A DNA stretch of 64,000 nucleotides from Eledone cirrhosa. Its lineage: Eukaryota. A program made the position numbers and the translations under genes. The notes below the pieces were generated by a model that saw only the letters and a program-made list of their open reading frames with translations, was not told the origin of the DNA and did not search any database. The DNA is taken from assembly GCA_964016885.1 (NCBI GenBank), contig OZ024742.1:301816001-301880000 (forward strand), read 5' to 3'. Positions 10,253 to 54,602 of the stretch are shown piece by piece (the stretch's first letter is position 1; each line of letters opens with the position of its first letter).

Positions 10253-10307
10253 ACTGCCTGAAGAGGTCACAGCCAAAGATGGCTGTCACTGAAATATATA
10301 TAGCAGT
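10253..10307 (+). ncRNA. minimal type I hammerhead ribozyme
   Basis: ACTGC-CTGAAGA-GGTCACAGCCA(AAGA)TGGCTGTCACT-GAAA-TATATA-TA^-GCAGT; stems I and II pair. Confidence 0.85.
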
Positions 10308-10357
10308 AATAAACGAAGCTAAATTTTAATCATTTGACTTTTATTTAACTTTATTTT

Positions 10358-10696
10358 ATGTATATATATATGTATATATATATATGTATATATATATGTA
10401 TATATATATGTATATATATATGTATATATATATATGTATATATATATGTATATATATATATGTATATATATATGTATATATATATATGTATAAATATATA
10501 TATATATGTATATGTATATATATATATATATGTATATATATATGTATATATATATGTATATATATATGTATATATATATGTATATATATATGTATATATA
10601 TATGTATATATGTATGTATATATGTATGTATATGTGTATATATGTATGTATATATATATGTGTATATTATGTATGTATATATATATGTATATATAT
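10358..10696. repeat. (TA)n/(TATG) microsatellite
   Basis: Direct inspection. Confidence 0.97.
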
Positions 10697-13166
10697 CTGT
10701 GGCTGGAGCAGGCCTGTAGGCAGGAGGAGAGTAACATGGTGGTGGAACAATAGGGTAGAGGGGTCAATTAAGGCCAAAAAGCAGGCTTGGAAAGTATGGC
10801 GGGATGGGGGAAGTAGAGTAGACTATCAAGTGGCCAGGAGGGAAGCTAGGAGAGAAGTGTACTTAGCAAGAAGGGAAGCTGAGGAAAGAAAGTTCAAGCA
10901 TGTTCTACAACGCGATGACCAAAAACGTGAGGTGTTCAGGATTGCCAGGCAATGCGTCAAGGAAAACCGTGATATTGTCGGGGAGAAGTGTGTACTTAAC
11001 GATGATGGCATACTTGCCATCACCGACACTGATAAGAAGGTAGCTTGGAAGTGTCACTATGAAAGGCTACTAAATGAGGAGAATAAATGGGAGAAAGACA
11101 GTCTCCCCCATATCGACCCGATAGAGGGACCAGCAGTGTTAGTCGAGGGGAGTATAATAAGTAAGGCAATCAAGGATATGAAGACTGGTAAGGCGGCTGG
11201 GCCTTCGGAAATAGTTGCTGAGATGCTGAAGGCATCTGGCACGGTGGGACACACCATGGTCACCCGCATAGTTAACCAAGTCGTACAGAATGGGGTTGTT
11301 CCGAAGGACTGGCATAGCAGCATCATCGTTAACTGTTATAAGGGTAAAGGAGACGCCCTAGATAGGAGTAACTATAGAGGCATTAAATTAATCGACCAGG
11401 TCATGAAGGTCACGGAAAAAGTAATAGCGCAACTAATCAGAGAGAGAATTGATCTAGATGAAATGCAGTTCGGGTTTGTGTCAGGCAAAAGCACCACAGA
11501 CGCTCTTTTCATAGTACGGCAACTACAGGAGAAGTACCTAGCTAAAGGTAAACCCCTCTACTTAGCTTTTGTCGACCTGGAGAAAGCCTTCGACAGAGTC
11601 CCCCGCTCCATTATCTGGTGGGCTCTTAGAAAACTAGGCGTTGACGAATGGCTTGTGAGGGCTATACAAGCCATGTATAAAGAAACAGTCAGCAAGGTTA
11701 GAATTAACAACGAATATAGTGAAGAGTTTAGCGTAAAAGTTGGCGTCCATCAGGGCTCTGTTCTCAGCCCCCTACTATTTATTATTGCCCTTCAGGCTAT
11801 AACAGAGGAGTTCAAGACAGGCTGCCCATGGGAACTCCTATACGCAGACGACCTGACACTCATAGCGGAATCAATGGCCGAGCTAGAGAAGAAATTCCAA
11901 ACATGGAAGCACGGCCTAGAGTCAAAAGGACTTAAAATTAACCTGGCTAAGACCAAAGTTCTAGTTTGTAGGAAAGAAAACAAGGCGGCGGTCCCTTCTG
12001 GGAAATGGTCGTGCTCGGTATGTAGGAAAGGCGTAGGTAGAAACTCCATCTTATGTCCTAAATGCAAAGTATGGGTGCATAAAAGATGTAGTGGGATCAC
12101 AGGTAAGCTAACTAAGAACATAGACTTTACATGTGGCCGGTGTTCTGGTGCAATAAGTAGCAGCAAGTGCCCACGAAATACTAGCTCTTTCAATTGCGCA
12201 GAGGGTTCTATAGAAATAGTGGACAGCTTCCGTTACCTGGGCGATAAAATCGGCAGTGGGGGAGGGTGCTCTGAAAGTACTGTAGCTAGAGTCAGAACTG
12301 GTTGGAAAAAGTTCAGAGAGCTTATACCACTATTAGCTGCTAAAGGGTTCTCCCTAAAAATGAAAGGCAGGTTGTACGATGCCTGCATACGAACAGCAAT
12401 GTTGCATGGTAGTGAGACCTGGGCATTGTGTGCAGAGGATATACGCAGACTAGAGAGGAACGAAGCTTGCATGCTCCGCTGGATGTGTAACAGTAATATA
12501 CGTGAACGGCAAAGCATAAACGAACTAAGGAAAAAATTAGAGATAAGAGGGATCAGATGTTGTTTACTCGAGAGAAGGCTGCGTTGGTATGGACACGTGA
12601 TGCGCATGAAAGTCGATAGCTGTATTACAAAGTGCAGGGCAATAAAGATAGACGGTAGCCACGGAATAGGCAGACCTAGAAAAACATGGGATGAGCTGAT
12701 AAACTCCGACCTCACACACTTACACCTCTCCAAGACAATGTCACTGGACCGTGACCTTTGGCGGTACTCAGTAACAGAGAAGACCCGCCTTGCCAGTAGG
12801 CATCTCTAACAAACTACACCCCGTCCCGCCACCACCCCCACCCCATCCACACCACCCCGTTCTATGTAAAGTTATGTTGGTGCCGCGCCATCCAGGCCGA
12901 AACAAATGAGATCGTGTAGGTGTCACGACAATAAAACACACAGTCCACGCTGTAATGTGGCCGTGTAGGCAACACGGTAAAAACCTCCCAGACCCACACT
13001 GTAAATGTGGTTGGTGTTAGGAAGGGCATCCAACTGTAGAAAACCTGCCAGACAGTCCTATGCGAGCAAGACAATCACTCTTGCTTCAAGTGGGACTACC
13101 CCGTCCAAACCCATGCAAGCGTGGAACACGGACGTTAAACGTGATGATGATGATGATGATGATGAT
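10697..13166 (+). mobile_element. 5'-truncated RTE LINE, family A (open RT frame to 12809, 3' UTR, (GAT)n tail)
   Basis: RT motifs [47 protein letters not shown]; endonuclease missing. Confidence 0.95.
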
Positions 13167-53008: not shown

Positions 53009-53079
53009 ATACATACATACATACATACATACATACATACATACATACATACATACATACATACATACATACATACATA

Positions 53080-53630
53080 TCTCTAGGCAATACAGGAACA
53101 AGAACTCCCTACCAAATATCTGCTGCACAAAAGAGGAGGGCCAGCAGCTGACAATAAATGTAGGCTATGTAAAACAAAGATCGAGGATGTAAGCCACATT
53201 GTTGCCAGCTGCGAAAGAATGTCATCTCGCTACTACCTCCCCATGAGACACGATGGGATAGCTGGAACGCACTTCGGAAAACAAAATTAACAACAAACGA
53301 GGAAGAATATATTGAGACAGATGGCACTAAGGAATACTGGTGGAACCTGAAAATAAAAACTGCCACCAAATTAAAGCACAACCAGCCTGATATTGTTGTT
53401 TGGGACCACACATTGAAAACGTGTTCTCTTGTGGAGATCAGCTGCCCACTTGATGTAAACGTTGTCAGAAAAATACAGGAGAAGGAGGACATCTATGGAC
53501 CATTGATGAGGAGTTTACAAATCCAGTATCCAAGATACACCTTTAGCTTCATACCCATCATATTGGAGCTACGGGTTATATACCAACCCGCTTGGACCAA
53601 AGTATGACTGAACTTGGATTTGCCCTTTGA
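53080..53630 (+). mobile_element. decayed R4/Dong-like restriction-like endonuclease domain
   Basis: Zinc-knuckle remnant, YYLPMRHD, WWNLKIKT..KLKHNQPDIVVWD..CSLVEISCP..KEDIY..FIPII. Confidence 0.8.
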
Positions 53631-54046
53631 CAGGTTTTGTTTTTAGTCCTGCAGGATGTCCAAAATCACCCTCCTCACCAAGAAACCTTGGTGGGGTTGC
53701 CAGTTTAGTTGCCAACGACCCGACCATGAGACAGGTTGTACTGGGATACATGTTACCAGTAGCACCAACTGGTGACCTGACTGACATACATACATACATA
53801 CATACATACATACATACATACATACATACATACATACATATGTGTGTGTATACACATACATATATATATTCAATTTAAACGTCCGTATAGAGCTAGTAAG
53901 CCATGACAGACTAGAAGTATCGAGTACTCACAGTTGGTAATCAAAAATAGCTAGTGAGACAAGTAATAAGAAAAGAAAAGAAAAGAAAAAAGAAAAAAAT
54001 CTAAAATCTAAAAGAAAAGGGGAATAAAAATAATATATATATACGT

Positions 54047-54602
54047 ATGTATATTTAAAAGTTAAACAAGGTTCAATGAATAAATCAAAGAATGAGTTTT
54101 ACAATAGATTGGAAGCACTCAACAGATATGGTTTTCCATAATAAAGTTTGTTTATACACATATATATATATATATATATATATACGTACGTATTAATTCA
54201 AAATATTAACAAAATAGATATTCTTGTGATCAAGTATATTTTATTATACATATTTCAGAGGTACTGAGTTAACTTCAACAGTACGTCCTCATCAGATAAA
54301 ATAAGATGATGCATGACATACCCTGACATAGTAGGTGGTTAAGATTCATGACTCATAGGTGGTTACTACCATGATTGAATCTTAACCACCTACTATGTCA
54401 GGGTATGTCATGCATCATCTTATTTTATCTGATGAGGACGTACTGTTGAAGTTAACTCAGTACCTCTGAAATATGTATAATAAAATATACTTGATCACAA
54501 GAATATCTATTTTGTTAATATTTTGAATTAATACGTACGTATATATATATATATATATATATATATATATATATATATATATGTGTATAAACAAACTTTA
54601 TT
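54047..54602 (-). mobile_element. palindromic hammerhead-bearing element: arms 54140-54348 and 54376-54602 plus ~90-bp tail
   Basis: Arms are reverse complements apart from internal TA-run length; 27-nt structured loop; tail contains TTGAGTGCTT on the minus strand. Confidence 0.85.
54421..54487 (+). ncRNA. type I hammerhead ribozyme (mirror copy on minus strand at 54237-54303)
   Basis: TATTTTAT-CTGATGA-GGACGTACTG...CAGTACCTCT-GAAA-TATGTA-TA^-ATAAAATA. Confidence 0.85.

Follow-up and report, generated by a model that had tools for sequence, protein, structure and literature searches.

Introduction

Hammerhead ribozymes of type I occur in the pseudo-long terminal repeats (pLTRs) of Penelope-like elements (PLEs), where Cervera and de la Pena (2014; PMC4209133) described action as dimers, variable families and low activity of the minimal hammerheads. 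Different palindromes within one genome are already described there, the Aedes families having CGCG, GGCC and CGCG loops. Tandem retrozymes and their PLE origin are treated in PMC7229834 and bioRxiv 10.64898/2026.07.22.740005, and one octopus family of the Hydra clade of PLEs is on record in PMC8557442. Here we analysed 64,000 nucleotides of the genome of Eledone cirrhosa (assembly GCA_964016885.1, contig OZ024742.1, positions 301,816,001 to 301,880,000), called the window below, which carries many hammerhead motifs. An earlier note on this DNA, made from its letters alone, had seen in them a system of GIY-YIG Penelope masters and non-coding parasites, each family with its own self-complementary stem III acting as a pairing code. 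We consider it probable that the hammerheads lie in pLTRs and in repeats moved by Penelope enzymes, and that the stem III palindrome serves dimer folding and differs between families by descent and compensatory drift, not as a code. The hammerheads add new families to a known class without demonstrating a code.

Hammerhead motifs in the window and across the genome

By eye, 13 type I motifs of eight families were counted in the window (A 1, B 3, C 2, D 1, E 1, F 2, G 1 and H 2), type I being taken as the core CUGANGA, GAAA and UH together with stems I and II. A core-like site at 562-605, in which stem I is absent, was left out of the count. The eight stem III strings listed in the earlier note are all where it had put them, with the TGCGCA motif on the minus strand. 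A strict type I descriptor found 7 cores in the window and 0-1 (mean 0.03) in 30 local dinucleotide shuffles, and a flexible descriptor passed 11 of the 13 motifs compared with 0-1 matches in 30 shuffles. The two motifs rejected by the scan come from families that pass elsewhere, E and G, and are damaged: the E copy has a stem I mismatched relative to its genomic copies, and the G copy has a core broken by A at position 8.

The flexible scan was also run on 120 evenly spaced 10-kb stretches, taken from eight large contigs, where it gave 109 matches versus 2-6 in ten shuffles. The hammerhead density of the window is ∼2-fold that of these stretches, and the window is typical in kind. Stem III was self-complementary (at least 85% of positions) in 82 of the 109 sampled matches versus 6 of 39 shuffled matches. 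We then counted exact patterns, with stem III left open, in the window's own genome (3.0 Gb), using reversed patterns as controls. This gave ∼81,000 matches, while the controls gave 0 or 1. The F/G/H stem I group accounted for 47,036 matches, the A plus D pattern for 16,271, and the B, C and E patterns for 12,600, 4,101 and 1,020, respectively (control 0 for each of these three).

Could the motifs be chance matches in AT-rich repetitive DNA? TATATA-like stems form easily at such a composition, yet the window shuffles yield almost nothing (0-1), the patterns have 1,020-47,036 genomic matches where their reversed forms have 0 or 1, and the position of the motif in pLTRs is fixed. The probability that we leave to chance is practically nil, because the shuffle and reversed-pattern controls already refute it. 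These are genuine hammerhead motifs, for which self-cleavage is predicted.

In the window, (TA)n lies at the element ends or no more than about 250 nt from them, and a whole-window Rfam scan was dominated by (TA)n matches to microRNA families. On small windows Rfam gave a hammerhead match for C alone and none for A and B; C matched HH9 with an E value of 1.6e-7, its 35.3 bits falling short of the gathering score (52). In the folds of both B and C stem I is extended (z -5.6 and -4.7, respectively), so that neither is minimal. Thus, the description 'minimal type I hammerheads' in the earlier note was right about the type but not about the minimal form of B and C.

Penelope-like carriers of hammerheads A, D, F and G, and a putative carrier of H

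Hammerheads A, F and G sit in the pLTRs of Hydra-type Penelope elements, H is assigned to this type by motif only, and D belongs to a Neptune-like element. The window contains the following copies:

8355..10358, + strand: family A, Hydra-type Penelope-like element truncated on its 5' side and having the short type of 3' end, 91-98% to the full-length natural copy L231
8355-8676: short inverted 5' piece of family A
8671..9075, + strand: end of the A open reading frame (ORF), GIY-YIG endonuclease (Pfam GIY-YIG E 5e-4, under cutoff)
10253..10307, + strand: hammerhead A, core 10258, stem III TATATA at 10295-10300, predicted cut after 10302
24852..25373, + strand: family D, what is left of the 3' part of a Neptune-like Penelope element, 93-97% to the full-length copy L289
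25111-25155, + strand: hammerhead D, stem III GGAC
41199..41263, - strand: hammerhead F, inverted copy, core 41255, stem III TATGTA
41412..41476, + strand: hammerhead F, direct copy, core 41420, stem III TATGTA at 41461-41466
about 41609, + strand: end of the F element (long end)
42159..43608, - strand: family G, 5'-truncated Hydra-type element, 84% to L236 (808-aa ORF)
43226-43600, - strand: GIY-YIG fragment of G
42204-42274, - strand: hammerhead G, stem III TGCGCA, core position 8 broken
54190..54534, both orientations: family H, inverted pair of short 3' remnants
54237-54303 (-) and 54421-54487 (+): hammerheads H, stems I and III those of F

The A hammerhead of the window lies 1.2 kb behind the GIY-YIG fragment. 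Full-length natural copies of A have an 894-aa frame, and the 150 genomic matches of the A endonuclease query that were scored are 96-100% identical. The A copy L231 has the layout inverted hammerhead, hammerhead, ORF, hammerhead, and the F copy L229 has the same; in A, F and D the distance from hammerhead to hammerhead across the ORF is 3.7-4.1 kb. G has an 808-aa ORF with a hammerhead, and beside each G ORF one intact motif on the same strand was detected and no second. The GIY-YIG Penelope masters proposed in the earlier note are therefore there, with hammerheads on both sides of the ORF in A, F and D.

Published Hydra elements (Craig et al. 2021; PMC8557442) combine a reverse transcriptase (RT) and, at the C terminus, a GIY-YIG endonuclease with RWK, DKT, a CxCx5C linker, CxxC and CxH, and have hammerheads and a (TA)n target in common with the families described here. 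In A, all of these motifs are present around the C-terminal GIY-YIG; in G, RW, CxCx5C, CxxC and CxH are present and DKT is found in one of two copies, while F is placed with the Hydra type through 42-60% identity to A and G only. By motif match rather than by an RT tree, A, F and G are assigned to the Hydra clade. (TA)4 was present within 400 nt downstream of 33 of 35 A sites and all 19 G sites, and exact (TA)n junctions were also seen. In contrast to the published elements, which are generally <3 kb, the units here span 3.7-4.1 kb and attain copy numbers in the tens of thousands in many families. The A and G endonuclease queries each gave >50,000 first-look candidates, compared with few copies of the published octopus family. 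Pfam did not recognise the Hydra-type ORFs. No ORF was found upstream of six H sites; H has stems I and III in common with F and also bears the tail element.

The full-length D copy L289 has an open frame of 1238 aa and two hammerheads 4,066 nt apart. CIDKKCITC, a Cx4CxxC linker, lies at residue 1112 of this frame and is followed by a C-terminal GIY-YIG at 1133. Judged by its Cx2-5CxxC linker and GIY-YIG motifs, D is a Neptune- or Nematis-like PLE.

Tandem non-coding families B, C and E

The remaining three families are short tandem repeats:

17641..18769, + strand: family B, tandem non-coding repeat of 310 bp, lying between (TA)n, its 5' piece inverted
cores at 17952, 18262 and 18571, + strand: hammerheads B, stem III CGCG
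22372..23271, + strand: family C, 469-bp tandem non-coding repeat, hammerhead cores at 22550 and 23019, stem III CTAG
27223..27634, + strand: family E, part of one unit of a tandem non-coding repeat of 520-540 bp
core at 27394, + strand: hammerhead E, stem III CTAATTAG at 27453-27460, stem I damaged in the window copy

Units are spaced 310 bp apart in B, 466-469 bp in C and 524-542 bp in E. Each has one type I hammerhead, a GC content of 0.34-0.36 and a longest ATG frame of 30-68 aa. The metazoan non-LTR retrozymes described in PMC7229834 and bioRxiv 10.64898/2026.07.22.740005 are likewise tandem, non-coding, low in GC and a few hundred bp per unit, with one hammerhead in each; RNA circles and expression are features of the published retrozymes, whereas B, C and E are known here from the genome sequence alone. 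All three bear the Penelope insertion signature, an inversion together with two fixed ends, which points to their being moved by PLE enzymes, and we consider this likely. The link to PLEs thus comes from insertion structure and is independent of pLTR homology; the non-coding parasites of the earlier note can be identified with these families.

Within an insertion, units of B are 99.5-100% alike, as against 98.1-99.3% from one insertion to another; 7 groups of stretches, treated as 6 insertions, were compared. The higher likeness within insertions fits one template per insertion. C and a related family, J, have patches of 68-75% identity. In one C array (G000:C1:14044533-14051135), CTAG and CTCG units alternate over part of the length, and in a 657-bp array at L168 variants recur with a six-unit period; both could reflect multimeric templates or duplication at the DNA level. 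In runs of three other organisms, a single 340-nt contig at depth 10-26 corresponds to one B unit plus overlap (window 17828-18137), and it fits carry-over, tandem DNA or a circle alike.

Insertion ends and the template

Insertions stop at two fixed sites that lie 50-300 nt past the predicted cut site: at +56 or +159 in A, +53 or +136 in G, +58 or +148 in F, about +128 or +163 in B and about +55 or +172 in E; in D the ends are two fixed sequences. Inverted pairs usually have one short and one long end, and the H pair of the window has two short ends. Of the 279 sites that were examined, not one ends at the predicted cut site, and for A the whole genome has only 12 copies that pass into (TA)n at this position. 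Priming on the (TA)n target by a (UA)n end exposed by cleavage was rejected on these counts.

We identify the two-end pattern, on its structure, as the PLE tail, which Frangieh et al. (2024; PMC11167929) traced, in Poseidon PAc of the green anole, to a pair of internal RT start sites. Poseidon insertions, too, have two fixed ends, both downstream of the hammerhead, which makes the tail optional. In that element the start is in an AC-rich stem-loop inside the ORF and the tail is 30-40 bp, whereas the tails here are about 26-120 nt and each Hydra-type end precedes its own copy of an element in the 5' untranslated region (UTR). As the ends lie past the cut site, the template RNA would span it, being either uncut or circular; the anole work favours uncut RNA in vitro (PMC11167929).

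In D (L289, downstream of the hammerhead at 2213), both ends fall at one short AT-rich word followed by CG. A word resembling it is found near the short end of B (window near 17805-17815), and this likeness may hint at a master that moves B.

Variation and sharing of stem III

We grouped 353 sites (duplicate loci removed) into 40 clusters by flank and stem II, with stem III unused. Stem III, which here comprises 4-10 nt between GAAA and UH, was nearly fixed in B (49 of 49 sites), A (39/40), C (32/33), E (25/28) and G (23/25). D was divided between GAAC (24/41) and GGAC (16/41), and F1 between TATGTA (9/18) and TATATA (8/18), so that stem III does not vary freely within most families, with D and F1 as the polymorphic ones. 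Self-complementarity, claimed as full or nearly full in the earlier note, is full in A, B, C, E and G, and requires G-U pairs in F and H (two in TATGTA). It does not extend to D, where GGAC and GAAC leave two central mismatches and the predicted homodimer helix has -1.7 and +2.4 kcal/mol, respectively.

The pLTR hammerheads of PMC4209133 are likewise type I, have a short palindromic helix III and many families per genome, occur mostly as single or inverted remnants and include the U3-A8 core variant, all as here. The published minimal form is of two bases, whereas the palindromes here have 4-10 nt and D is not fully palindromic. The families at L150, L180, L238, L143 and L232 have the U3-A8 core variant, which is on record for Schistosoma, or a stem III of odd length (7 or 9 nt) with a central mismatch.

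In most families stem III is less variable than the flanks, whose figures are inflated by indels; D is the exception. Changes in stem III amounted to 2/160 in E (compared to 144/994 in stem II), 1/174 in A and 4/138 in G. The F/G group has stem III states on the path TATATA-TATGTA-TACGTA-TGCGTA-TGCGCA, in which neighbours pair at 8/8 positions and the two ends at 6/8; TACGTA has 565 matches, mostly in one family. From this variation, stem III looks conserved by purifying selection and appears to drift via G-U steps.

Pairing was computed between natural copies of 27 families, with 13 clusters omitted (subfamilies, likely false matches and some singletons). Among the 351 family pairs, 41 were compatible in stem III alone, 25 in stem I alone and 12 in both stems, these 12 all among relatives. 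In the window, 3 of 28 pairs were compatible in stem III (A-F, A-H and F-H), and F-H in both stems. F1, H, the F of the window and a fourth family have TATGTA and stem I in common, and the RT stretches of two of these four are 64-79% identical. A and F have TATATA-type stems in common at about 50% RT identity, and distant Hydra families have TATATA in common, while C and J keep CTAG with a changed stem I. Thus, the claim that each family has its own stem III did not survive, as F and H have both stems in common.

We next weighed whether stem III is a selected family code, directed against cross-processing of co-expressed families or pairing passengers with masters. Near fixation in most families speaks for it, as do the 339 of 351 family pairs predicted to be incompatible when both stems are counted, the fact that among the exchanged stems G differs from F in stem III only, and the partial tracking of sub-lineages by the variants. 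A code is at odds with the sharing of stem III between families, both in the window and in the genome, and with the TATATA/TATGTA polymorphism, which is cross-compatible. In addition, the stem III of the tandem families matched none of those found in masters, and with so few lineages all-distinct palindromes arise by chance at a probability of 0.4-0.6. In the accounts of other animals, the two Hydra families of one sea cucumber have an identical stem III (PMC8557442), as do two of three Aedes families (PMC4209133). We therefore regard a selected code, the central proposal of the earlier note, as very improbable. That several families share one palindrome argues instead for a folding requirement, and the family-typical palindrome is likely a requirement of the kind already described in other animals.

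Proposed dimer folding and its alternatives

In the explanation that we favour, dimer folding with divergence by descent, the stem III palindrome would allow a pair of copies carried by the same transcript to form a double hammerhead in cis, and cleavage would proceed from this fold. RT would start at the two internal sites on RNA spanning the cut site, that is, uncut tandem RNA or a ligated circle. The geometry suggests that a double hammerhead exchanges stem I along with stem III, because the strand with the cut site also bears the 3' half of stem I. Divergence in either stem would then block mixed dimers as a by-product.

Several observations weigh against this explanation. D is abundant even though its commoner stem, GAAC, gives the unfavourable homodimer helix noted above. 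G and F have stem I in common and differ in stem III, with the G homodimer predicted to be favoured (-10.5 versus -0.1 kcal/mol), as a code would predict. Stem III variants partly follow sub-lineages: the nearest neighbour has the identical variant at 12 of 14 F1 sites and 23 of 29 D sites (permutation p 0.045 and 0.12, respectively), and the lineage sample is too small to exclude weak selection. TGCGTA was found at one site only, so that it does not count as a demonstrated family along the path. The similarity of B/C/E-type units to the pLTRs of seven PLE copies was not significant (best E 0.004). Insertion of the anole PLE in vitro did not need hammerhead cleavage (PMC11167929), and among nine Xenopus dimers one was cleaved and eight were not, according to the retrozyme literature cited above.

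Some of these points would also fit an alternative in which the hammerheads work as monomers with the help of protein, or are passengers of weak activity, with the palindrome of little weight in vivo. The anole hammerhead needed protein to cut, and insertion in vitro could do without the hammerhead (PMC11167929), and minimal dimers are weakly active (PMC4209133), which means that the efficient cleavage as dimers stated in the earlier note exceeds its source. D does without a full palindrome, and insertions do not end at the cut site. On the other hand, palindromes persist with compensatory change over many families and lengths, and most families vary least in the core and in stem III; on balance we find this alternative unlikely. 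Dimer folding could be examined with natural pairs that have in common both stems (F and H), stem III only (A and F) or stem I only (G and F). A literature search for heterodimer or trans tests in retrozymes returned nothing relevant.

A duplicated stem-bulge-stem element in the 5' UTR

Full-length copies of A, F and G carry RCTCC...GARYRC in the 5' UTR, 0-7 nt after each of the two ends, compared to a background of 0.042 per kb. The duplicated element was noted in the 5' UTRs of L231, L229 and L230. One such site, in the F tail, belongs to the window:

41524..41545, + strand: predicted stem-bulge-stem, conserved, at the short-end site of Hydra-type families

The element is made up of RCUC, a single pyrimidine, an inner hairpin, a stretch of three bases, GAGY and RC, and is predicted to fold into an outer stem RCUC/GAGY, a one-by-three bulge and an inner stem. 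It was present in 41 of 53 Hydra-type copies that reach 100 nt past the cut site and, just past the long end, in 10 of 24 E-type copies. The outer stem has a pair in which A-U is exchanged for G-C. In 15 family-site representatives there were 34 inner pairs versus a shuffle mean of 8.0 (none of 5,000 shuffles reached 34), a statistic drawn from related families with a pattern chosen from the tested data, in which some long-end copies pair poorly inside. No element was found in B, J, O or the 5' region of D, and C has one loose match far from the ends.

In the published consensus sequences (PMC8557442) the element can be seen by eye: Hydra-2_Amil and Hydra-2_Ajap each have it at the 3' end, Hydra-1_Ajap has two copies at the 5' end, and Hydra-1_Obim has a variant of it. 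It is thus visible in Hydra sequences of coral, sea cucumber and octopus. Neither our literature searches nor the available part of the Hydra clade account (PMC8557442) gave a description of a duplicated element at the two insertion ends.

Judging by its position, the element may mark where RT binds or starts; it could instead act as an internal promoter element. We give about an even chance to the proposal that this duplicated element, and not stem III, is the recognition signal of the Hydra type, kept from coral and sea cucumber to the present genome, in which case E would borrow a Hydra enzyme. If the element does set the two starts, an RNA signal of a telomerase-related reverse transcriptase would be named and recognition between master and passenger would become testable.

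Other elements in the window

Non-LTR retrotransposons with an APE endonuclease, an RT and a PHD-like finger lie in (TA)n at 10494-12809 and 32396-35518, the latter an open frame of 1040 aa, and fragments of this kind are found at 26027-26622, 28010-29476 and 39284-40730. We take the APE/RT/PHD-like elements to be RTE-like. Further retroelement fragments lie at 36999-37901, 51700-52560 and 53173-53607: one of RT, one from a C terminus with C2H2 fingers, and one whose nuclease motif, for which Pfam gave no match, is presumably restriction-like. A minisatellite with a 20-bp unit in about 140 copies occupies 3528-6239.

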